A stretch of DNA of 20,000 nucleotides from an uncultured virus (IMG/VR IMGVR_UViG_3300028393_000050) (lineage: Duplodnaviria > Heunggongvirae > Uroviricota > Caudoviricetes), in the IMG/VR virus record IMGVR_UViG_3300028393_000050; one strand, written 5' to 3'. Each line of letters opens with the position of its first letter. Within the stretch, counting starts at the first letter, position 1. The translations under genes and the position numbers were made by a program. The notes below the pieces were generated by a model, which saw nothing but the letters and a program-made list of their open reading frames with translations, ran no database searches and was not told where the DNA came from. Shown here piece by piece: positions 4,404 through 20,000 of the stretch.

Positions 4404-4778
4404 TTGTCTAACCCGTTTGTCAATTTATTTACAGAACCTGAACCTTGGGAATATCAAGCTAAATGCGGTACGCGTGTTTACAAAGAAGAAACTAAAGAAT
4501 ACGTAAATGTTTACGACCCCGATCTTTGGTTTCCGCCTAGAGATAAGGCTTTATACAAACCAATAGCTGATAAGGCTAAATCAATTTGTTTTGGGCGCGA
4601 TGGCCGACCAGAATGCCCAGTTAGACTTCAATGTTTAATGGCAGCAGATAAACGTGATGAAGTGCACGGCATCATGGGAGGTATGAGTCACCGTGAAAGA
4701 AACGCTTTAAAACGTAAAGCTGAAAAACAAGGAACTACTTTAGAAGAACTTGCTAAAAAATCTAGTAGACATTCCTAA
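4404..4778 (+). CDS. whiB: WhiB-family (Wbl) Fe-S transcription factor, atypical
   Basis: W..QAKC...DPDLWFP...AKSIC...CPVRLQCL...HGIMGGMSHRERNAL; AGGAG RBS before the TTG start. Confidence 0.88.
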   Translation: MSNPFVNLFTEPEPWEYQAKCGTRVYKEETKEYVNVYDPDLWFPPRDKALYKPIADKAKSICFGRDGRPECPVRLQCLMAADKRDEVHGIMGGMSHRERNALKRKAEKQGTTLEELAKKSSRHS

Positions 4779-7824: not shown

Positions 7825-8106
7825 ATGTCCGAATCACCAGATGATAATGTGTTGCGCGTAAGCGCATCCAGCAATCCGCAGTCCGTCGCATCCGCTATTG
7901 CTCATGCTATTTACGAAAAAGGTACTTGTAAAATTCGCGCCGTAGGCGCAGGTCCAGTAAACCAAGCCGTAAAAGCAATTGCAATTGCCAGTGGATACAC
8001 CGCCCCACGTGGAATAAGCCTAGTATGTGTACCAGGTTTCCAATCCATTGAGATCAACGGTGAAAACATCAGCGCAATTGTATTTAAAGTAAATTCAGTT
8101 AATTAA
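7825..8106 (+). CDS. spoVS: SpoVS-family (Alba-like fold) nucleic-acid-binding protein
   Basis: VLRVSASSNPQSVASAIA...IRAVGAGPVNQAVKAIAIASGYTAPRGISLVCVPGF closely follows the SpoVS signature (IQAIGAGALNQAVKAVAIARGFVAPSG). Confidence 0.9.
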   Translation: MSESPDDNVLRVSASSNPQSVASAIAHAIYEKGTCKIRAVGAGPVNQAVKAIAIASGYTAPRGISLVCVPGFQSIEINGENISAIVFKVNSVN

Positions 8107-9879: not shown

Positions 9880-10407
9880 ATGGCAAGTGCACACCAAAAT
9901 ACCCAAAGCTTAGGTGCTGGCGGTTTATACGGAACCTACACTAATTATGGTGGAGGCGGCGTTGCCGTTGCTCGTTCAGAGCTTGACTATTTACGCATGG
10001 GTGTGGGTCGCGAACCATCCGCAGAATATCCAGATGGTTATTTAGGAACAATTAGAACTCGCCGCGATGATCGTGGACGCCCTAATAGCGTATCTGAGCA
10101 GGTCCTTCACGGCCTAAAAGTACGCCAAACGCAACGTGGTTATCAGCGCGGCGTTCATCGCGGCGAGCGCATTGACCCAGGCGATTACTATTTAGCCCCA
10201 GAGTTTGCCGTAGATAGAGGCATTAAACGCCAAATGGCCGCTGCGCGCAAAGGCGTGCCCGCAAAGAAATTTACACCGGCTTTTTCATTAGCCCCAGCCC
10301 CTCACCTAGTAAATGATGGTAAGGCAAATACTCGTTCTAACGCGCCGTTAGAGATGAACAATAACCGTAAATCACAACTTCGTGGTTTAAGTCCGCAATG
10401 GAGTTAA
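9880..10407 (+). CDS. Gly/Arg-rich hypothetical protein, probably leaderless
   Basis: No RBS; TAAACT -10-like hexamer at 9868-9873, 6 nt before the ATG. Confidence 0.75.
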   Translation: MASAHQNTQSLGAGGLYGTYTNYGGGGVAVARSELDYLRMGVGREPSAEYPDGYLGTIRTRRDDRGRPNSVSEQVLHGLKVRQTQRGYQRGVHRGERIDPGDYYLAPEFAVDRGIKRQMAAARKGVPAKKFTPAFSLAPAPHLVNDGKANTRSNAPLEMNNNRKSQLRGLSPQWS

Positions 10408-10408
10408 C

Positions 10409-10714
10409 ATGGGAAAAGTAGGTAGTGCCCTCGCATGGGCTGCAGAAAAAGCAACTTCTGGGGATAAAACAGTTGATTTTTTTCCAACCGAGTCGCGTAA
10501 AAAATCATTTGCAAATGGCACAGGTCAATCATCTGAGATTGATGACGCTATTGAGGCGCATGATGCAGAGGTAGAACGCAAGCAAAAAATTGGTGAAAGA
10601 CGGGCTAAGCTTATTGATTCGGTAGATAACAATTTAGCTGTAGGCACAAGTATGGCCGAAAAAATAGATTACAAAACCCGTAGCGCACTTAAAGAAAATA
10701 AAGGAGTTTACTAA
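10409..10714 (+). CDS. Hypothetical protein
   Basis: Tightly packed in the operon. Confidence 0.7.
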   Translation: MGKVGSALAWAAEKATSGDKTVDFFPTESRKKSFANGTGQSSEIDDAIEAHDAEVERKQKIGERRAKLIDSVDNNLAVGTSMAEKIDYKTRSALKENKGVY

Positions 10715-10716
10715 AA

Positions 10717-11094
10717 ATGGCATTTTTAGCCCCGTTAATCCCAATTATTGGAGAAGCACTTGCTGGAGGAGCCGCAGTTGCTGGTGAAGCAGCCGCAGGT
10801 GGAGCTATTGCTGGAGAAGCCGCTGCAGGAGCTGCAGCCGCTGGCGAAGCTGCCGCTGCAGGAACTGGAGAAGCTGCCGCTGCAGGCGGGCGTTTTAGTC
10901 AATTTACTGATGCTGTAAAAACCGCATATGATTCGCCAACTGGAAAGACTGCTAGAGCTGGACATATGCTTAGCGGTGGAGATAATAATAGCGATCAATC
11001 AACCACTCAACCATACACGTTAGACCAAGCCAACGCTGCAGCTAATAGACAAGGCGAATTTTTATCAGGCGCGACACAAACTGGGGCTAATTAA
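10717..11094 (+). CDS. Ala/Gly-rich protein with five GEA(A/L)A repeats
   Basis: MAFLAPLIPII-GEALAGGAAVA-GEAAAGGAIA-GEAAAGAAAA-GEAAAAGT-GEAAAAGG. Confidence 0.75.
   Translation: MAFLAPLIPIIGEALAGGAAVAGEAAAGGAIAGEAAAGAAAAGEAAAAGTGEAAAAGGRFSQFTDAVKTAYDSPTGKTARAGHMLSGGDNNSDQSTTQPYTLDQANAAANRQGEFLSGATQTGAN
10750..10890 (+). repeat. Imperfect in-frame tandem repeat (24-33 bp units, GGNGAAGCN...GCAGG)
   Basis: For example, gaagctgccgctgcagg occurs twice exactly. Confidence 0.8.
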
Positions 11095-11450
11095 TGCCTA
11101 ATACCCCAGATGGTAGATATGGGTATAGGGCGTGGGATAAAGCCATAGGTGTACCAAAAGAGGCAGCGATGCCTCCGCAAGAGTATTTAGGCCCTTTTGC
11201 TAGTAATAATGAACGTATGCTAAGCCAGGCCCTTAAAGTTGGTAACTTAACCGCAGCTGAGATACAAGATTATGTACGCCCACCTTTGCCACAAATAAAC
11301 CTTTTTCCTAATAAATTTGGGTATGAGACTTCAGAATATGGCATTAAAGATATAGTAGAACTATCTGGTCGAATTCAACAGCGTGTTGATTTCTCAGGGG
11401 CGGCTACTACAACCGAATCTACAAGCAGGAACGCGTTAGGAAATACATAA
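11094..11450 (+). CDS. Hypothetical protein
   Basis: TAATG coupling to the previous gene. Confidence 0.7.
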   Translation: MPNTPDGRYGYRAWDKAIGVPKEAAMPPQEYLGPFASNNERMLSQALKVGNLTAAEIQDYVRPPLPQINLFPNKFGYETSEYGIKDIVELSGRIQQRVDFSGAATTTESTSRNALGNT

Positions 11451-11451
11451 T

Positions 11452-11655
11452 ATGGACCTTAGTTCTGTAGACCCGACCGGTGATGGAATGGCTCAAGTTA
11501 CCCCATATCCAGCGGGAATTCGCGTGTATAATGGTGATAAGCCTTGTACGTCATGCGGTTATATTTTAAATCCTGTTCAAGCATTAAACTCAGATATTTG
11601 TCCTGGATGCTCAAGACGTAAAGCGGCAAAACAACTCGCCAATAAGATGGCGTAA
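11452..11655 (+). CDS. Small zinc-ribbon protein
   Basis: CTSCG...CPGC; AGGA RBS. Confidence 0.7.
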   Translation: MDLSSVDPTGDGMAQVTPYPAGIRVYNGDKPCTSCGYILNPVQALNSDICPGCSRRKAAKQLANKMA

Positions 11656-11665
11656 GGAGATAACC

Positions 11666-11872
11666 ATGGCAGTAAATGAATCACGTTCATTGAGCGAAAG
11701 CCTAGAAAATGGCGCAACTGACGGTAAGTACCGTAAGCGTCGCCCTAACACCGAAGTAGCCCCTGGACAGGGTGACCAAACAGTTATAAAGAACCGTGCT
11801 GGTCTACATCCTTACATGAACTACGGTTTTATTAACAGCGAAGACCCTAATAAGGTAGTTCCAGGGAAGTAG
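11666..11872 (+). CDS. Small hypothetical protein
   Basis: AAGGAG RBS; basic KYRKRRP patch. Confidence 0.7.
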   Translation: MAVNESRSLSESLENGATDGKYRKRRPNTEVAPGQGDQTVIKNRAGLHPYMNYGFINSEDPNKVVPGK

Positions 11873-11874
11873 TC

Positions 11875-12258
11875 ATGGCAATATTTCATGATCGCAGAAG
11901 TGGCGAACTTGTTAATTTAGGTAGAGATAGCGAAGGCACTAACTCCAAAATGCGCCTTGATAGCCGCAATACTTTGCCTTATGATTTTTTTCCTACCAAA
12001 ACTAATCCAACGGAAGTTTCTATAAAACTTCCAGGCGCAGAAACTGAGCAAATATTTCCTTCGATGTCTGCACTAGCTAAGCACCCAAGAGTGCAAAAGC
12101 GCATGAAAGACGAGGGTCAAGGCATCATTACCCGTAAAATTATTGCACCATTAGTTGCAAAAGGTTATGACATGTCCGCCAAAGCTATGGATAAAAGTGC
12201 TCGTAAAAACAATAAACGCACCGGTAATAGGTTGCGTAAAGAAAATCAAGGACGTTAA
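11875..12258 (+). CDS. Basic hypothetical protein, paralog of 13024..13365
   Basis: MAIFHDRR...FPSMSALAKHP...MKDEGQG...RKIIAP. Confidence 0.75.
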   Translation: MAIFHDRRSGELVNLGRDSEGTNSKMRLDSRNTLPYDFFPTKTNPTEVSIKLPGAETEQIFPSMSALAKHPRVQKRMKDEGQGIITRKIIAPLVAKGYDMSAKAMDKSARKNNKRTGNRLRKENQGR

Positions 12259-12263
12259 TCACC

Positions 12264-13022
12264 ATGGCGACACCTAGAAAGAAACCAGGCAACAGATTAA
12301 CCGCATCTGAAAGAAAGCAAGTTACTAAAAGTAACAAAGCCATTAAAAGAAGACGCGATATTACTGCAGGCGCTAAACAAGGCGGTCTTTGGGCTGACAG
12401 CTCAGGACTTGGAGATTCATTACGCGACTTAGACAAAATAAATGCTAAAACAGGAATGTCAGCTGCTGAACAAGCAGATAAAGATGCCGAAGGTACACAA
12501 TATCAACGCGTAAAAACCAAAGAAGAAGTAGCAACTGGAGAGAGCAAAGGCCAACAATTTAGAGGTCATGGCGGTTCTGTATTTCGTGACGCAGAGAGTA
12601 GAAACAAACATAACAAGCGTTTTATTAATGATATGATGCGAGCTGGTGCACCAATTCCGGAGTCTATGCACAGGGAACTTGAGGCGCATCAACAAATGTT
12701 TGAGACAACCAAAGACCCAGCTAAGAGAGAAGATTCTAGAAAAAGAATTGGGCGTATGTTACAGGCAGGTGCAATTAACCCAAGTAAATTTCCTAATGGA
12801 ACTGCGTGCCAAACCCCAAATTGCCCAAATAGCACAAAAGACGACGTTGTTTGCTCAACGTGTCTAGGCGGCGCAAAAGGTAGCCGTACTGAAGGTATGA
12901 AAACTACAGGAACTAAAATGCAGACTGCTGATGTGGCAGGCGCAGGTTACAGAGATAAACCCCAACGAGCACCTAAAGACCTTACAAAAACAAAGAGTAC
13001 TAAACCAAGAAAGGCGGCATAA
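12264..13022 (+). CDS. Highly basic protein with a CxxxxC...CxxC site
   Basis: K/R-rich termini; CQTPNC...VCSTC. Confidence 0.75.
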   Translation: MATPRKKPGNRLTASERKQVTKSNKAIKRRRDITAGAKQGGLWADSSGLGDSLRDLDKINAKTGMSAAEQADKDAEGTQYQRVKTKEEVATGESKGQQFRGHGGSVFRDAESRNKHNKRFINDMMRAGAPIPESMHRELEAHQQMFETTKDPAKREDSRKRIGRMLQAGAINPSKFPNGTACQTPNCPNSTKDDVVCSTCLGGAKGSRTEGMKTTGTKMQTADVAGAGYRDKPQRAPKDLTKTKSTKPRKAA

Positions 13023-13023
13023 A

Positions 13024-13365
13024 ATGCCATTTGAATTTCACGACAGACGCACAAACACCTTACACCCACTAGCTACTCAAGCTAGTTTGCACAATAAAGA
13101 AACAGGTTCTGTTCACGCTTTTGATTCACTTCACGCTTTAGTTACAAGTCCAGAAGGACAAGCAGGAATGAAAGCAGCTGGTAAGGGCAGATTTGCTCGT
13201 AAAGTTATTGCACCAATAACTGCTAGATTAGGCGATGCTGCTGCTAAGCTGGCAGATAGATTAGAGCCAAAAGCAGATAAAATTGCAAGAGCAAAAGCGG
13301 CAGAAAAAGCTAAAAACACTTACACGGATGTTTCTGGCCGTGAGCAAAAGTGGTCAGACTTTTAA
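13024..13365 (+). CDS. Basic hypothetical protein, paralog of 11875..12258; true start ATG 13024
   Basis: MPFEFHDRR...FDSLHALVTSP...MKAAGKG...RKVIAP; starts 1 nt after the previous stop. Confidence 0.75.
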   Translation: MPFEFHDRRTNTLHPLATQASLHNKETGSVHAFDSLHALVTSPEGQAGMKAAGKGRFARKVIAPITARLGDAAAKLADRLEPKADKIARAKAAEKAKNTYTDVSGREQKWSDF

Positions 13366-13408: not shown

Positions 13409-13906
13409 ATGTCTAATAAAGAAGAGCAAGAACCGTATTTTCGTTTACTGGTCTGTAAAAACTGTCGTACCATTGACGAACTGCCTTCCGCTGAGGAAGA
13501 CCCAGGCAACACCCTTTTAAACATTACAGTAGAGCGCCATGGTGATTTGCATTATGGCCGTCTATGGAATGTGCCTAAAGCCGTTTGGTCTACCCCAGCC
13601 CTTAAAGAAGATGTAATTAAGCAGTTATCTGGTGGCGAAGGCGAAGGTCTAGGACTACCTTTCTACAATACTCGTATGCAGTTTGCAGAAGACGCTATGA
13701 CCTGTTATAGTATCCATAACCGCCCAAGTGGACAATGCCCTGACTATAAATCAGACAAAAAGAAACTTTCAGCGGGTACTGAGCAAATGCGTAAAGCAGA
13801 AAACTTAGACAAATACGCAGGCCCAACCATTTATCTGTGCGATTTTTGCCCAGTTAAGTCGTTTAACATGGTAAAAACACACGACAAAATCAAAGCATTT
13901 GACTAA
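13409..13906 (+). CDS. Cys/His-rich putative zinc-binding protein
   Basis: CKNC...H; CYSIH...C...CDFC. Confidence 0.75.
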   Translation: MSNKEEQEPYFRLLVCKNCRTIDELPSAEEDPGNTLLNITVERHGDLHYGRLWNVPKAVWSTPALKEDVIKQLSGGEGEGLGLPFYNTRMQFAEDAMTCYSIHNRPSGQCPDYKSDKKKLSAGTEQMRKAENLDKYAGPTIYLCDFCPVKSFNMVKTHDKIKAFD

Positions 13907-13919
13907 AAGGAGTCACAAA

Positions 13920-14222
13920 ATGGCAAACGGAACACCAACCTCACCAATTGAAACTGAAATTGAAACTGAAAAAATCCCTAAGTTTGAAACCGGATTTATT
14001 GTCCTTAAGGGAGAAAGCGGTGCTTGGCACGTACTGACAGACATCACGGCTAAAATAGAACTTGAGCGTGAAGTTGCCGTTAATGAGGTAAGGGCCGCTA
14101 CTACTGAAATTACCTATTCTATTGGTCAACAACAGTTAGCTGCCCTTGTTTTGTCAGCACTTTCACCACAACCTTCAGATGTCAACCTAGAAGACCCAAC
14201 TGAGGGTACAATAAAAGAGTAA
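13920..14222 (+). CDS. Hypothetical acidic protein; start probably ATG 13920
   Basis: AAAAGGAG RBS at 13905-13912. Confidence 0.7.
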   Translation: MANGTPTSPIETEIETEKIPKFETGFIVLKGESGAWHVLTDITAKIELEREVAVNEVRAATTEITYSIGQQQLAALVLSALSPQPSDVNLEDPTEGTIKE

Positions 14223-14244: not shown

Positions 14245-14469
14245 ATGTTTGCGGAAATGTCCTGTAAGTGCGGTTCAACCTTGCAACTTGATGGGTTTAA
14301 CGAAAGTTTAACTGAGTTCACAGTAATACGGTTTTTAGAGGCTCACACGGGTTGTGGTTTTGTAACCCCCGTAAAAAATGAATTCCCAGAAAAAACAACT
14401 CGTAGAGAATTTGAAATAAAACAACCTAACTGGACTATAGTTTCTGTTGATGACGATGAAGAGGATTAA
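14245..14469 (+). CDS. Small CxC...HxxC protein with an acidic tail
   Basis: SCKCG...AHTGC; AGGAG RBS; abuts the NTase start. Confidence 0.7.
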   Translation: MFAEMSCKCGSTLQLDGFNESLTEFTVIRFLEAHTGCGFVTPVKNEFPEKTTRREFEIKQPNWTIVSVDDDEED

Positions 14470-15363
14470 GTGTTAGAACCAACAGAGACATCATATTTTA
14501 GCAAACCTTCTGTCGGACTAGACCCTAGGTTATTTAGGGATGGAAACCTACACGGTTTAGTTCGTTCAGCCATTTTACAATTGTTATTTAATCATTTAAA
14601 CAGTAAATATACTGGCGGAGAATCTTGGTCTCATGTGTGGCTTGCCGGATCGGGAGTTTCGTATCAGTGGGCTGCTCACCGTGACCCAGGTGATTTAGAT
14701 TGCTTAATTGGAATTGATTACGTTAGATTTAGACAATCAAATACTAAATTTATGGGGTTAAGTAACCAAGAGGTTGCCTCAATGCTTAACGAAGGTTTCC
14801 GAGAAGAACTTCATCCAATCACTGATAGATTCTTAGACTCGTTTGAGTTAACTTTTTATGTAAATGTGCGTAGTAACATCGCTGATATCAAGCCCTACGC
14901 CGCGTATTCTTTGACAGACGATAATTGGACTGTCACACCTAGTATGGACACTGTTCAAGCTAACCCAGCTTGGTTAAATGCAATAGAAAATGACAGACTA
15001 CTAGCAATTGATATATTGTCAAAATATGTAGCCGCTAAAAACAAATACGAGCAAGCAAGCAACGATGCTATTAAAGCAAATGCTCGTTCAGAAATGCGTA
15101 TGTCTATGTCACAAGGTTCCTCGTTGTATAGTAGTATCCATAATGAACGTTCTACCGCCTTTAGCCCATCGGGCGAAGGGTATTCAGATTTTGCTAATTA
15201 TCGTTGGCAATCAGGTAAACAATCAGGAGTAATTCAGTCACTTCGTACTTTGAAGGCTGAGATGGATGCCGAAGATGAAGCACTAAACAAGTCAAAATAC
15301 GGAGTAGATTTGCCAGACGCGAATACTTTAATTCGCCGTGCCGCAACTCGTCACCAATACTAG
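14470..15363 (+). CDS. DNA polymerase-beta-superfamily nucleotidyltransferase with a helical C-terminal domain
   Basis: hG[GS]...DhD signature: WLAGSGVSYQWAAHRDPGDLDCLIG; likely third carboxylate in FELTFYV; GAGG RBS, GTG start. Confidence 0.8.
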   Translation: MLEPTETSYFSKPSVGLDPRLFRDGNLHGLVRSAILQLLFNHLNSKYTGGESWSHVWLAGSGVSYQWAAHRDPGDLDCLIGIDYVRFRQSNTKFMGLSNQEVASMLNEGFREELHPITDRFLDSFELTFYVNVRSNIADIKPYAAYSLTDDNWTVTPSMDTVQANPAWLNAIENDRLLAIDILSKYVAAKNKYEQASNDAIKANARSEMRMSMSQGSSLYSSIHNERSTAFSPSGEGYSDFANYRWQSGKQSGVIQSLRTLKAEMDAEDEALNKSKYGVDLPDANTLIRRAATRHQY

Positions 15364-15375
15364 AAAGATTTAATC

Positions 15376-15831
15376 GTGGCAATTGTCATGTTCCTTGACG
15401 GCGTATTGCGTTCTGAAAATAAGACACCAATATTTGAAGGCGTTTCTCTATATAAAGCCCTAAATGTTAATGGGCTCGTTAGCCTTGCTTGTGATGACCA
15501 AGAAGAAGCTAATCGTTGGTGCAAAGAGCATAAACTAGTAGACATCGATGGGTTTATTTCTAATAAAACAGTTGGTGAATACGAGGATAGGGACTTTCGC
15601 AAAATACAGCACCAACAGGCCTCTGCGCCCATTCATATGGTTATTACAGCAGACATGGACTTAGCCGTTAAATGCCTTGAGAACGGCATTAAAACCCTTC
15701 TTTGGCTACATCCTGTCTATCTGAGTGCTAAGTTTAGACCAGACGGTAGAGAAGGTCGCAAAAGTTGGGATGCTGTCGTTGGTGAACTAGACAGACAGGT
15801 ACAACTTATGCTTGAGGATGACCGTCTATGA
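15376..15831 (+). CDS. HAD-fold protein (capless, PNKP-phosphatase-like) with degenerate catalytic motifs
   Basis: N-terminal IVMFLDGVLR resembles hhhDhDGvL with the first Asp replaced by Phe; motif IV region MVITAD; C-terminal GIKTLLW strand. Confidence 0.55.
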   Translation: MAIVMFLDGVLRSENKTPIFEGVSLYKALNVNGLVSLACDDQEEANRWCKEHKLVDIDGFISNKTVGEYEDRDFRKIQHQQASAPIHMVITADMDLAVKCLENGIKTLLWLHPVYLSAKFRPDGREGRKSWDAVVGELDRQVQLMLEDDRL

Positions 15832-17270
15832 AAATAATTTATTTAGGTGCGGAAGTACCAAGCAATAGGTCCATTTTAGACCACGCTAACGCTAAAAAGG
15901 TTGGTGTTAGTTATTGGGGCCTTGTAAAGCGTGGCTTACCAAAAACTAAGAAATACCTATTAGAGAATTACTTTAAAGACGAAGTAGAGGTATATGTATA
16001 TCCAGGCATCCCAGCTACATCCAACTTAACAGATGAAGAATTAGATGACTTTTGTGCCGATTATGAAGAGTTTATTTCAGATAACCTGAATAGAATTACC
16101 CTTTTTACCGAAATAACCCACCCAAGCCTGTCACAAGAGTTTATTATCCAGCAGCGAGCTACTGCGTGGCATGAAGTAGATGACACTAAGTTTGGCGTTG
16201 TTTATACCGAGGGTAGCTTAGAAAGCCTTGCTACTAGATATTTAAATGTTTTTATTCCGGGAGATGTGGCGGAAACACTTGAGCCAATGTGTCGCAAATT
16301 TTCTTCACAGCACGGTACTAAGTTTCATATCTTAGGGTCTATTAAGCCTGATAAGTTTCACAACTCGCCGTTTGAGACTACTAGCACGCTTGCATGGTTA
16401 TCCCCTATGATGAGGGGCGAAACTATTGTATGGTTTGGTAATCAATTGCACCGTTACCCTAAGCGTATGAAAGACCAAGCCAGGTCTAGATACAAGGCTG
16501 CGTATGAAGAAGCTAACTTAGATTTTGATAAAATACTGGCAGATGACGCAGTAGAAATATCTAAATTAGCGGTGTGGTCGTACACACAATTAGAGAATTG
16601 GGCATTAAAAACTAGTTTAGGGCTAGTAACTAGCGCCAGTGCTTTGCCACCCACCGATTTATCGGAAACACCCCCCTCTACTGTTACTGGTGAGGGGTCT
16701 GAAGTGCGGAAACTTGAGACAAGAAATCCTGCCGAAATGCGTACTTTACCTGTGCTTGGCGTTGATGTTTCACGAGTAATTGAGACAGACCAAGATGGTC
16801 GCGATGTTATCAAAGATGTCCCTGTTCTTCGTTCAAATAGCACTAGCCTACGCCAGTGTAATACTTGTTTTGTAAAAGATAATTGCCCTGCTTTTAAGGT
16901 AGATAACCCTTGTGCATTTAACTTACCCGTTGAAGTTAAAACTAAAGAACAACTTAAGGGTCTAATTAACTCACTCCTTGAAATACAAGGGCAACGAGTG
17001 GCATTTGCCAAGTTTGCCGAGGATTTAAACGGCGGATACCCTGACCCAAATACAGGTTTAGAAATGGATAGATTCTTTAAAATGCTTAAGACTATTAAAG
17101 AGTTAGACGAGTCAAAAGAGATGATGCGAGTTACCCTGGAACGCGGAAATTCGGCTGGAGTTTTGTCTAGTTTATTCGGTGATAGGGCTCAAAAATTAAG
17201 TGAATTACCTAATAATGGGCTTAATGAAAATCAGACAAATGAGGTAATTAAAAAGATAACTGACATTTAG
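15828..17270 (+). CDS. Two-domain protein: degenerate TGT/DpdA-like barrel plus C-terminal Cys4/helical domain
   Basis: MKIIYLG, VGVSY, YEEFI, KFHILG, PFETTSTLAW...RG follow the order of phage TGT-like motifs (HGFG...PFxSVDSxSW); S/T/P linker; CNTC-x5-C-x8-C; C-terminal GVLSSLFG. Confidence 0.55.
   Translation: MKIIYLGAEVPSNRSILDHANAKKVGVSYWGLVKRGLPKTKKYLLENYFKDEVEVYVYPGIPATSNLTDEELDDFCADYEEFISDNLNRITLFTEITHPSLSQEFIIQQRATAWHEVDDTKFGVVYTEGSLESLATRYLNVFIPGDVAETLEPMCRKFSSQHGTKFHILGSIKPDKFHNSPFETTSTLAWLSPMMRGETIVWFGNQLHRYPKRMKDQARSRYKAAYEEANLDFDKILADDAVEISKLAVWSYTQLENWALKTSLGLVTSASALPPTDLSETPPSTVTGEGSEVRKLETRNPAEMRTLPVLGVDVSRVIETDQDGRDVIKDVPVLRSNSTSLRQCNTCFVKDNCPAFKVDNPCAFNLPVEVKTKEQLKGLINSLLEIQGQRVAFAKFAEDLNGGYPDPNTGLEMDRFFKMLKTIKELDESKEMMRVTLERGNSAGVLSSLFGDRAQKLSELPNNGLNENQTNEVIKKITDI
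16616..16634. repeat. Copy 1 of the 19-bp palindromic repeat TTTAGGGCTAGTWACTAGC
   Basis: TTTAGGGCTAGTAACTAGC; 18/19 identical to 17266-17284. Confidence 0.8.
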
Positions 17271-17322: not shown

Positions 17323-17424
17323 CACGCAAAATAACACACCCACCACTCGCTTCCGGATCATCTTCTAGCAGGGATGAACTATACTAGAACACTACCCCAA
17401 ACAAATAAAAGAATAGGAAATGCT

Positions 17425-19458
17425 ATGTCATTATCATTTAAATTAACAATCGACTTCGTAGAAAACTACAAGAATAAAGTAGTACCTTGGGGGTTTAAAG
17501 ATGTTGCTGGTAACTCTGTTGGAGAGATTACCTTTCTTCGTACTTACTCTCGCCTAAAGGCTGATGGTACTAAAGAAACTTGGACTGATGTATGTGAGCG
17601 TGTCATCAACGGTATGTATTCGCTTCAGAAAGACCACGCTAAAACTAACCGTTTGCCTTGGAACGACGCTAAGGCACAGGCTTCCGCTAAAGAAGCGTTT
17701 GACCGCCTGTTTAATCTTAAGTGGACTCCGCCTGGCCGAGGTCTTTGGGTAATGGGTACCCCGTTGGTAAATGAGCAAAAGAATAGTGCTGCTTTGCAGA
17801 ATTGCGCATTTGTTTCTACTAATGAAATGTCTAAAAACAACCCTGCTAAGCCGTTTGCGTTCTTGATGGAAGCCTCGATGCTGGGTGTGGGTGTGGGCTT
17901 TGATGACAAAGGTGCCGATAAAGGCTTTGACATCTATGAGCCAAAAGGCGAACAAGTGTTCGATATCTCTGACACGCGAGAGGGTTGGGTAGATAGTACT
18001 GTTGCTTTAATAAATGCTTATTTAAAGCCAGACCAGCCTACTTGGGTATTTAATTACGACAGCATTAGACCATTTGGCGCACCTATCGCTACCTTCGGCG
18101 GAACTGCTGCGGGACACGAACCGCTTCTAAAATTGCACACGCACATTAGAAAACTCTTTGCTGGTAGGGCTGGAAATAAGATAACCCGAATTGATATTGC
18201 GGATATAGGCAATATGATTGGTGTTTGCGTAGTTTCAGGTAACGTTCGCCGTTCTGCTGAGCTGTTGCTTGGGCGTATAGATGACGATAACTTCTTAAAT
18301 CTCAAAAACGCTGAGCGTTTCCCAGAACGTAACTCTTATGACCCAGAAAATCCAGGTTGGGCTTGGATGTCTAATAACTCTGTAGAAACCGCTGTGGGTA
18401 CAGACCTCTCACCTATCGTGGATGGTATTGCTCTCAACGGTGAACCTGGAGTTATCTGGATGGATGTAACTCGTAAGTATGGTCGTTTGGCTGACCAACC
18501 CAACAATAAAGACTGGCGTGCTGCGGGCTATAACCCATGTGCCGAGCAATCTCTCGAATCGTTTGAGTGCTGTACTCTGGTAGAAACTTATCTAAATAGA
18601 CACGATAGCCTAGAGGATTACAAGCGTACTCTCAAGTTTGCTTATCTCTATGCTAAGACTGTTACACTCTTGCCTACTCACTGGGAAGAAACCAACGCTA
18701 TCATGCAAAGGAACCGTCGCATTGGAACTTCTATGTCTGGTGTGGCTAACTTCGCTGACATCAACGGGCTTCCAGTGCTTCGTGAGTGGATGGATGAAGG
18801 CTACAAGACTATCGTTAATTACGATAAAAGCTATTCTGAGTGGCTTGGAATACGAGAAAGCATTAAAACAACTACAATAAAGCCTTCTGGTACTGTATCT
18901 ATTCTCTCTGGTGAAAGTCCAGGCGTACATTGGACTCCAGGCGGCGAATACTTTTTGCGTGCCATCCGCTTTGGTAATGATGACCCTATGCTCTCTCTCT
19001 TTAAAATGGCTAATTACCGAGTAGAACCTGCTAGTGAAAACCCTACTAAGACTTCTGTGGTGTTCTTCCCTATTAAATCTCTTGCTAAGCGTTCTGAAAA
19101 AGATGTATCTATCTACGAAAAGGTTGCTCTCGCTGCGACTGCTCAACGCTGGTGGTCAGATAACTCTGTGTCTGTGACTATCTCTTTTGACGCTGAAAAA
19201 GAAATTAAAGATGTAGGTACAGTTCTCCACATGTACGACGGTCAGTTAAAAACGATCTCTTTCTTGCCTATGGGTAACCATGTCTATCCTCAAATGCCTT
19301 ACTCTCAAATCTCTCAAGCGGAATACGACCAGTATGCTATGGAACTATTCCCTATTGACTTTGCTGGAGTGTATCAGGGCTTAGGCATTGACGCTATTGG
19401 TGAGGCTTATTGTACAACTGACGCTTGTGAAATAAAACTAATTAAAGACAACCAGTAA
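17425..19458 (+). CDS. nrdJ: Class II adenosylcobalamin-dependent ribonucleotide reductase, monomeric RTPR type; start probably ATG 17425
   Basis: RTYSR, PPGRGLW, ALQNCAF, LGVGVGFD, VVSGNVRRSA, NPCAEQ, TTIKPSGT, DNSVSVT and C-terminal CTTDAC redox pair; AGGA RBS at 17415-17418. Confidence 0.95.
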   Translation: MSLSFKLTIDFVENYKNKVVPWGFKDVAGNSVGEITFLRTYSRLKADGTKETWTDVCERVINGMYSLQKDHAKTNRLPWNDAKAQASAKEAFDRLFNLKWTPPGRGLWVMGTPLVNEQKNSAALQNCAFVSTNEMSKNNPAKPFAFLMEASMLGVGVGFDDKGADKGFDIYEPKGEQVFDISDTREGWVDSTVALINAYLKPDQPTWVFNYDSIRPFGAPIATFGGTAAGHEPLLKLHTHIRKLFAGRAGNKITRIDIADIGNMIGVCVVSGNVRRSAELLLGRIDDDNFLNLKNAERFPERNSYDPENPGWAWMSNNSVETAVGTDLSPIVDGIALNGEPGVIWMDVTRKYGRLADQPNNKDWRAAGYNPCAEQSLESFECCTLVETYLNRHDSLEDYKRTLKFAYLYAKTVTLLPTHWEETNAIMQRNRRIGTSMSGVANFADINGLPVLREWMDEGYKTIVNYDKSYSEWLGIRESIKTTTIKPSGTVSILSGESPGVHWTPGGEYFLRAIRFGNDDPMLSLFKMANYRVEPASENPTKTSVVFFPIKSLAKRSEKDVSIYEKVALAATAQRWWSDNSVSVTISFDAEKEIKDVGTVLHMYDGQLKTISFLPMGNHVYPQMPYSQISQAEYDQYAMELFPIDFAGVYQGLGIDAIGEAYCTTDACEIKLIKDNQ

Positions 19459-19645: not shown

Positions 19646-20000
19646 TTAATTCATGGCTACTGCCATTAGGAATCCGAAGGCTATAAAGACTACTGGTGAT
19701 AATCTCATGTCTTTTGCGTTAGAGAGCATTACTACAAAGAACCCTATTACAAGTGATAAAACTGCTGTTACTGGTAAGAATACAAGGGCTACTCCCCATG
19801 AAAACCATGCCAAAATCATAGACAAGGTTGCTAATAGTTTTACATCACCCATACCTAATAGGTCATACTTAATGTTTATGAAGAAACCAAACAGGATAGT
19901 TCCTATAAAGAATAGGATAGAGATACCGAACTTTAGCCACTCGCCCTGCCAGATTGCTAAGGTCAGCCAACACAACAAGGTCAGAACCATTAAAGGCACA
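19646..20000 (-). CDS. Prepilin peptidase-like (A24 / GxGD aspartic) polytopic membrane protein, probably 5'-truncated by the window edge
   Basis: Several hydrophobic segments; LGMGDVKLL signature; C-terminal RLSPVVF resembles the PFGP/LAP motif. The first catalytic Asp is not inside the window. Confidence 0.75.
   Translation of the reverse strand, partial: VPLMVLTLLCWLTLAIWQGEWLKFGISILFFIGTILFGFFINIKYDLLGMGDVKLLATLSMILAWFSWGVALVFLPVTAVLSLVIGFFVVMLSNAKDMRLSPVVFIAFGFLMAVAMN

Follow-up and report, generated by a model that had tools for sequence, protein, structure and literature searches.

DpdA, a protein of the TGT family, has been proposed as a signature protein for 7-deazaguanine DNA modification in phages (PMC10516641). 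In the DpdA of Salmonella, Asp95 acts as the acid/base and Asp256 as the nucleophile, both being essential, and Asp130 and His181 bind the base, as described in PMC10164549. Among phage proteins, that of Bacillus phage BCD7 is listed with the full set of pathway genes, and that of Streptomyces phage BRock is listed as a DpdA with no other pathway gene (Hutinet et al. 2019, Supplementary Data 1, PMC6884629). The main text of that study notes that divergence may have occurred in such singletons. Here we analyze a stretch of 20,000 nucleotides, referred to as the window, from an uncultured virus of the Caudoviricetes (IMG/VR record IMGVR_UViG_3300028393_000050). The window encodes a DpdA-like protein that has lost its nucleophile and belongs to a conserved module with a pol-beta-superfamily nucleotidyltransferase (NTase), a small Rossmann-like protein and a Cys/His-rich protein.

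A different use of the TGT fold is known from type IV CBASS, in which the TGT-like Cap10 and the CD-NTase CdnD form a 2:2 complex with the N-terminal tail of CdnD in the TGT pocket, and the Rossmann-like Cap9 is the third player (bioRxiv 10.1101/2025.04.06.647259). According to that preprint, QTRT2 of the eukaryotic TGT is a non-catalytic subunit of the TGT family that aids substrate binding. The first-pass annotation of the window, made from its sequence alone, stated that no characterised system of this make-up was known. This agrees with the literature that we searched, but a pairing of a TGT-family protein with a pol-beta-type NTase is described for type IV CBASS in the preprint. In the text and files of PMC6884629 that were searched, neither the nucleophile loss of the BRock protein nor its partner genes are mentioned, and full-text searches, which did not cover subscription journals, returned no paper on either.

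A conserved four-gene module

The window carries four ORFs (open reading frames) on the + strand, encoding 74, 297, 151 and 480 residues and separated by 0, 12 and -4 nucleotides. They correspond in coordinates and spacing to the four abutting or overlapping genes that the first-pass annotation had grouped as a module at 14245..17270. The extent of the module was drawn differently there: a conserved partner at 13409-13906 lies outside that range and went unmentioned, and the 74-residue gene inside it is clade-specific. The features of the locus are as follows.

13409..13906, + strand: Cys/His-rich protein of 165 residues, a conserved partner with BLASTP homologs in 94 of 108 sources
13899..14222, + strand: 107-residue protein, a clade-specific filler gene; no family match; ratio of nonsynonymous to synonymous substitution rates (dN/dS) 0.16-0.41
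14245..14469, + strand: clade-specific 74-residue protein with a CxC..C motif; AGGAG 7 nucleotides upstream of the ATG
14470..15363, + strand: pol-beta-superfamily NTase, 297 residues; GTG start directly after the TAA stop
15376..15831, + strand: small Rossmann-like protein, 151 residues, called 'HAD-like' earlier; 12 nucleotides after the NTase gene
15828..17270, + strand: DpdA-like gene, 480 residues; ATGA overlap with the 151-residue gene
15828..16625, + strand: TIM barrel of the DpdA/TGT type (residues 1-266), with none of the three canonical Asp residues
16626..16727, + strand: low-confidence linker (residues 267-300); predicted local distance difference test (pLDDT) score <50 for 267-296; dN/dS 0.4-2.3
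16728..17270, + strand: C-terminal domain with Cys4 (C344, C347, C353-P354, C362) and helices
17270..17286, + strand: terminator-like hairpin GGGCTAG-TTA-CTAGCCC of 7 pairs with a T-rich tail, found by consensus scan only

We surveyed the window together with 107 fetched loci (108 sources). In every one of the 98 nucleophile-less loci that include upstream DNA, the Rossmann-like gene immediately precedes the DpdA-like gene, and the NTase is found in 89 of 97 nucleophile-less loci; many of the surveyed loci are near-identical close kin, so that these counts overstate the independent support. The stronger point for synteny is its span, since gene order and strand are constant from lake phages of 42% GC to Streptomyces phages at about 30% protein identity. 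The coupling that had been proposed from the spacing of the genes is thus matched by co-occurrence across very distant phages. Homologs of the Cys/His-rich protein, including BRock gp42, lie 1.3-5.2 kb upstream of the DpdA-like gene. On the other hand, the 107-residue gene has homologs in 39/108 sources, exclusively close relatives of the window, and the 74-residue gene likewise in 39/108, with no distant one among them and a dN/dS of 0.07-0.12. These observations define a conserved phage module of four components, namely the Cys/His-rich protein, the pol-beta NTase, the Rossmann-like protein and the long-form DpdA homolog.

In BRock-type phages, an endolysin gene precedes the NTase gene and an extra gene precedes the barrel gene; in BRock itself, an extra gene of 388 codons lies between the Rossmann-like and DpdA-like genes. 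The terminator-like hairpin of the window begins at the final base of the stop codon of the DpdA-like gene. A promoter scan gave 12 sites in the sequence and 10.5 in shuffled sequence, which is no excess.

Fold and family of the 480-residue protein

No Pfam family covers the 480-residue protein. It matches phrog_887 ('queuine tRNA-ribosyltransferase') with E 1.6e-36, residues 159-474 aligning with profile positions 180-498, including the Cys4 region. The AlphaFold2 model, built with 99 diverse homologs, has a mean pLDDT of 82 and consists of a confident barrel (residues 1-266, pLDDT mostly >90), a disordered linker (267-296) and a C-terminal part with hairpins, the four Cys residues and helices. 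The first 27 PDB matches of the model in Foldseek are all TGT at E about 1e-4, with other TIM barrels close behind. VIA-align places DpdA 7UI4, ArcTGT 1IQ8 and TGT on top (Z 16.6-15.9, about 255 aligned residues), and its top 50 rows all belong to this family. These fold matches alone are no proof of kinship, because 782 of 1000 chains reach Z 8.

Comparison of profiles carries the assignment further. The 99-sequence family profile aligns with the DpdA of phage 9g at 97% hhalign probability (E 3.6e-11) and with BCD7 gp21 at 99.8% (E 3.5e-30), the latter motif by motif. We take this as the decisive evidence of DpdA/TGT homology. The 480-residue protein is a true DpdA/TGT homolog of a 'long-form', in which a TGT barrel is joined to a Cys4 domain, and the TGT/DpdA-like scaffold read from the sequence at first pass is confirmed by both fold and profile. 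Its family comprises 712 representatives at 50% clustering, from actinophage genomes of about 85-115 kb, and the databases label this branch as 'queuine tRNA-ribosyltransferase' or 'dpdA-like transglycosylase'.

The four Cys residues of the C-terminal domain are invariant in 99/99 sequences. The Cys4 domain also exists as a separate gene in Bacteroides phage BS162P1 (locus L109, 3851-5483) and in the loci L105 and L106, where the long-form DpdA is split into barrel and Cys4 genes that are adjacent or nearby. Relationship of the C-terminal domain to a small terminase was considered and dropped, as the only hint, a language-model similarity of 0.76 to the small terminase of T5, is at chance level by the tool's own figures.

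Loss of the canonical active site

To locate the catalytic positions, the family was aligned with the canonical forms from 9g, BCD7, L105, L106, Bacteroides phage BS162P1 and both L107 paralogs. The four sites compare as follows.

Acid/base site: canonical xDSG; window VYPG (Tyr58)
Base-binding Asp: canonical E/N-x-D; window E-I-T (Thr97)
His: canonical His; window His167
Nucleophile: canonical x-D-S-x-x-W ('CDSSSW' in 9g); window T-S-T-L-A-W (Ser186)

Among the 99 family representatives, the nucleophile column contains Asp in 1, Ser in 48, Ala in 15, Gly in 14 and Thr in 10. The other two columns retain Asp more often (59/99 in the DSG column and 77/99 in the base-binding column). The 121 sequences that are at least 51% identical to the window protein have no Asp at position 58 or at position 186, and position 97 is occupied by D, T, Q, N, S or V, with D in 34/121. 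Judging from these alignments, the sub-branch of the window has lost the acid/base and base-binding Asp residues as well, beyond the nucleophile loss of the whole family. A FastTree tree of these 99 representatives requires a minimum of 17 changes of the Asp state at position 58 and 16 at position 97. The old active site is therefore no longer maintained. The barrel is dead for the known DpdA/TGT reaction.

Close comparison with individual relatives shows the same picture. BCD7 gp21, which belongs to phrog_887, shares with the window protein the barrel, the C-terminal Cys4 region, E9, the His and a G-E motif. Unlike the window protein, which has Y, T and S at the three sites, it keeps DSG, the base-binding D and the nucleophile in 'GDSTTW'. 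The bacterial DpdA 7UI4 matches the window protein in fold (Z 16.6, root-mean-square deviation (rmsd) 3.4, 253 aligned residues), as the 9g DpdA1 does at the profile level. Relative to the Salmonella residues Asp95, Asp130, Asp256 and His181, the window protein keeps the His only, and it has the Cys4 domain in addition. The BRock DpdA, 31% identical over 99% of the query, falls into the same nucleophile-less branch and has the same partners in the same order, but unlike the window protein it still has the Asp residues of DSG and EFD.

The canonical forms also differ in their neighbors. BCD7 gp21 adjoins FolE, QueC, QueE and QueD, and the nucleophile-keeping barrels of the metagenomic loci L105 and L107 lie among FolE, QueC, QueD and a radical-SAM QueE-like gene. 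The three partner genes of the DpdA-like gene were found neither in the examined region of BCD7 nor in those of L105 and L107. Conversely, the window contains no deazaguanine synthesis genes, as had been noted from the sequence, and QueC and FolE are absent from all five derived-branch genomes searched (BRock, two that are 100% complete and have terminal repeats, and two at 97% completeness), QueD and QueE not having been searched genome-wide. The 'nucleotidyltransferase' BCD7 gp15 was tested as a counterpart of the window NTase and is unrelated (hhalign 0.06%).

Two canonical loci deserve a description of their own. L107 (9977-15195) encodes two DpdA-barrel paralogs, both with the nucleophile, and one of them overlaps QueC by 4 nucleotides and lies directly upstream of the large terminase gene. 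In L105 (6369-9648), QueC is separated from the barrel by a cytidylyltransferase-like gene, a PfkB-type kinase fragment, a family 9 glycosyltransferase and a deaminase-like gene, a set that might add further decoration to a 7-deazaguanine.

The NTase retains its catalytic motif

A database search returned 1320 homologs of the NTase. In 48 aligned homologs, down to 32% identity, G60-S61-G62, D75-x-D77 (L76 in the window) and E126 are invariant, in keeping with the intact GS...DLD...E motif read at first pass. The AlphaFold2 model (pLDDT 87) shows a minimal NTase core at residues 32-148 followed by a C-terminal helical bundle. The protein has no Pfam family, and neither its sequence nor its profile matched a solved NTase. 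Structure comparison gives modest similarity to minimal (MNT) NTases, which have the GS..DxD..E core in common with it: residues 32-148 align with 1ylq at Z 6.5 (rmsd 3.3, 89 aligned residues), and residues 19-150 with HI0073 (1no5) at Z 6.0. In Foldseek, ANT(9), AadA and CD-NTases are matched weakly (E 0.01-0.1), and of these ANT(9) and AadA have a similar layout of an N-terminal NTase and C-terminal helices (E 0.01-0.04). Searches with the whole model are dominated by generic three-helix bundles (Not5, syntaxin, BAG) and are uninformative on function.

Two conserved elements set the window NTase apart from the MNT, KNTase and ANT types. One is an N-terminal tail, in which F10, S11, P13, L17, D18, P19 and F22 (..T-S-Y-F-S-x-P-x3-L-D-P-R-L-F..) are invariant; this tail of 22 residues has no regular secondary structure in the model. 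The other is the invariant block H224..R227..G235-x-G237..D240..N243..W246-Q247..K250.

The Rossmann-like and Cys/His-rich partners

The 151-residue protein starts with ..MFLDGVL, placing F-L-D at HAD motif I. Across 98 homologs, the position of the HAD nucleophile holds F, V, I, A, T, N and others, with Asp in 1 of 97 readable rows. The missing nucleophile that led to the protein being called a dead HAD is thus a clade-wide feature. The HAD fold itself found no such support: Pfam, NCBIfam and PDB-sequence searches gave no match to any HAD, and the hhalign probability to the capless E. coli HAD GmhB is 0.3%. An argument built on the healing of 3'-phosphates by HADs accordingly has no support. 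The segment after strand 1 (G-V-L-R-x5-P-I-x-x-G-x-x-L-Y) looks like a HAD squiggle and flap, and protein-language-model neighbors lean to HADs at 0.87, which the tool rates as no more than a lead.

Meanwhile, E. coli YaiI/DUF188 gives an hhalign probability of 43% (E 2.6e-4) over 37 columns only, and PF02639 (YaiI/DUF188, PIN-like) appears below threshold in 8 of 21 members, with a best E of 0.004. The conserved residues are W48, P113-x-Y115, R121-P122-D123, W131 and D148-x-R150, a pattern that fits a binding surface better than the active site of a HAD or of YaiI/DUF188. We also considered a degenerate QueC for this partner, because QueC overlaps a DpdA paralog by 4 nucleotides in L107, and rejected it at hhalign 0.07% and 0.2% to two phage QueC proteins.

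In the Cys/His-rich protein, C16, H44, D95, A96, C99, R128, C144, C147 and P148 are invariant in 21 sequences; it has no Pfam, PHROG, PADLOC or PDB-sequence match. For the module as a whole, PADLOC, including its CBASS models, matched none of the 18 module proteins tested, and searching the PDB with single sequences or with profiles yielded no usable hit for the four proteins.

Purifying selection on the module

Against three relatives with unsaturated dS, we obtained the following dN/dS values, with RNR, the neighboring ribonucleotide reductase, for comparison.

NTase: 0.03-0.07
Rossmann-like protein: 0.08-0.15
Barrel: 0.06-0.11
C-terminal domain: 0.06-0.07
Cys/His protein: 0.04-0.08
RNR: 0.07-0.09
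Linker: 0.4-2.3, unconstrained

With values of 0.03-0.15 for all four conserved parts, like those of RNR, the module is not a relic, contrary to one of the roles suggested at first pass. Since the Asp residues are lost, the preQ0 pathway is missing and purifying selection is strong, the module represents neither 7-deazaguanine DNA modification nor a decaying system.

Genomic context of the window

The window, phage DNA with a GC content of about 42%, has almost all of its genes on the + strand. Besides the module, it encodes a family A DNA polymerase, a UvsX/RecA-like recombinase, resolvases, a Cas4-like exonuclease, a WhiB-like regulator and a class II RNR. Its closest metagenomic kin are viral contigs of 80-90 kb, and the nearest isolated relatives are the Streptomyces phages BRock, GiJojo, pSt2308, Alone3 and LuckySocke. 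Because of the WhiB-like gene and these relatives, we assign the window to an actinophage, as had been presumed. Two small genes are relevant here.

4404-4778: WhiB-like regulator (phrog_472, E 2.7e-14)
7825-8106: homolog of a small 'sporulation protein' (phrog_35646, E 3e-23)

The 'sporulation protein' annotation is also found on BRock gp51 and BCD7 gp31. Upstream of the module, 9880-13365 contains a series of low-complexity, basic or Ala/Gly-rich ORFs with no family match. Two paralog-like proteins (11875-12258 and 12931-13365) have the common motif ..FHDRR..L........ARK(I/V)IAP... The sole sizeable minus-strand ORF (19646-19999) encodes a hydrophobic protein of 117 residues without a PHROG match.

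The RNR protein (17374-19458) is 99% identical to that of locus L004, with dS 0.09. In contrast, the NTase and Rossmann-like genes (14470-15831), 2 kb upstream of RNR, show 72-74% identity to L004 and saturated dS. This difference indicates a mosaic genome with recent recombination between the module and RNR.

Genes linked to restriction appear in a few relatives. In L078 (11526-14547), the DpdA-like gene is immediately followed by phage-borne genes for a type I methyltransferase (HsdM) and a specificity subunit (HsdS), and no restriction subunit was seen in the stretch scanned. GiJojo has an ArdA-like gene near the module.

A possible mechanism and its alternatives

On the basis of these observations, we propose that the DpdA-like protein may act as the non-catalytic binding subunit of a putative complex. 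Its Cys4 domain, common to the DNA-modifying forms, would hold nucleic acid, and the remodelled barrel and the Rossmann-like partner would position or regulate the NTase, the sole component with an intact known active site. At an early stage of infection, the NTase would then add a nucleotide to a hydroxyl group on DNA, on a protein or on a small molecule, and the likeliest purpose would be to shield the phage DNA or to blunt host defence. We favor a nucleic-acid-associated complex because the Cys4 domain is common to the DNA-modifying forms and can be a separate gene. The full mechanism, in which a non-catalytic DpdA-like subunit guides the NTase for phage protection, is a reading that we adopt tentatively, as one that may well prove incorrect.

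Several findings weigh against this proposal. Eight loci, each with upstream DNA in excess of 8 kb, have no NTase but keep the other partners, so that the NTase is not obligatory and may not be the catalytic heart of the module. The hints of anti-restriction that neighboring genes give, as in L078 and GiJojo, are limited to a few relatives, and the neighbors in the window are replication genes and RNR. The barrel, moreover, keeps a set of residues on its catalytic face: E9 (93/99), R35, W190 and G197-[E/D]198-T199 in the family, and E95 (119/121), H167 (121/121), E198 (121/121) and E183 (81/121) in the close relatives. E95, H167, E198 and R35, with the mostly kept E9 and E183, could form a new site, and 'non-catalytic' is for this reason a matter of interpretation. 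The barrel had been called catalytically dead for want of its Asp residues. The loss of these residues is borne out and extends, for the nucleophile, across the clade; deadness holds for the known reaction and does not extend to any catalysis whatsoever.

An enzyme with a relocated site is the alternative that takes these residues at face value. The DpdA-like protein would use E/D183 with E9, E95, H167 and E198 to exchange or excise some base in DNA that is neither guanine nor 7-deazaguanine, and making or activating the incoming group would fall to the partners. Position 183 lies three residues before the old nucleophile and is D/E in 42/99 representatives, and the barrel is under strong constraint; yet the same position is non-acidic in 57/99, with at least 24 state changes on the tree. 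E9 and the G-E/D motif also occur in the canonical BCD7 gp21. Positions 58 and 97 vary freely among close relatives, unlike a defined base pocket, and the module holds no recognisable synthesis genes for any base. We consider this alternative unlikely, although it merits attention. A Cap10-like role, in which the barrel pocket holds the NTase tail and keeps the NTase off or on, with nucleic acid not being the target, appears more doubtful still. It draws on the invariance of the tail down to 32% identity, on its lack of structure in the model, on the CD-NTases among the weak Foldseek matches and on the Cap10-CdnD complex itself, where a pol-beta-type NTase tail occupies a TGT-family pocket (bioRxiv 10.1101/2025.04.06.647259). 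Cap10, however, retains its Asp residues and depends on a QueC-like Cap9 and on an M(G/S)G(G/S)GG tail according to the same text, none of which is present here: the window tail reads MLEPTETSYFS, PADLOC found no CBASS match, and the 151-residue partner compares with QueC at 0.07-0.2%, leaving no sequence link to type IV CBASS. The strong constraint on the Cys4 domain, common to DNA-modifying forms, and the eight loci without NTase also speak against this role.

Repair or modification of tRNA or RNA, where the barrel binds tRNA, the NTase adds nucleotides and the HAD-like protein handles 3'-phosphates, is very improbable in our judgment. TGT relatives do act on tRNA, and BRock-type phages carry about 29 tRNA genes (PMC7453282, PMC11465772), but the closest active relatives are DNA-modifying DpdAs beside preQ0 genes, the 'HAD' has neither a nucleophile nor a HAD match, and the NTase has no CCA-adding-enzyme signature beyond weak Foldseek rows. 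We give hardly any credence to the idea that the module is what remains of a decaying 7-deazaguanine DNA-modification system and no longer has a function. Catalytic residues and synthesis genes are lost, as such a relic would have it, but only the linker drifts, the family is large, and synteny is kept from phages of lake actinobacteria to those of Streptomyces hosts.

The tentatively adopted mechanism, a DpdA-like subunit guiding the NTase, has two partial parallels. Like the window module, the Cap10-CdnD system combines a TGT-family barrel remodelled away from nucleic acid, a tailed pol-beta-type NTase and a small Rossmann-like accessory; unlike it, that system has a Cap10 with the Asp residues still in place, a Cap9 that is a genuine homolog of QueC and another tail motif, and it serves bacterial defence (bioRxiv 10.1101/2025.04.06.647259). 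By analogy, Cap10-CdnD may be seen as a precedent for a TGT-family protein holding an NTase, the resemblance being one of working and not of membership. QTRT2 offers the parallel of a non-catalytic TGT-family subunit, but it pairs with an active TGT paralog, of which there is none in the window, the five related genomes not having been searched for a second barrel. We further speculate that the DpdA barrel might clamp the conserved tail of the NTase, which would be an NTase of a new kind, and, with a metal-binding protein and the Rossmann-like adaptor, tether the NTase to DNA through the Cys4 domain, a nucleotidyl mark on DNA or protein then protecting the phage. This elaborated form is improbable as it stands. 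If true, a DNA-modification lineage would have turned into a pseudoenzyme-guided transferase, a phage counterpart of the pair formed by Cap10 and its CD-NTase.

Implications

A large DpdA branch has neither the nucleophile nor a base pathway, and therefore the presence of 'DpdA' is no sign of modified DNA in these phages. The tight conservation of the module with its three partner genes points to a selectable activity other than the known 7-deazaguanine DNA modification. The branch includes the culturable Streptomyces phages BRock and GiJojo, which makes it directly testable. It would be the second case, after Cap10, of a TGT fold put to a new use beside an NTase.

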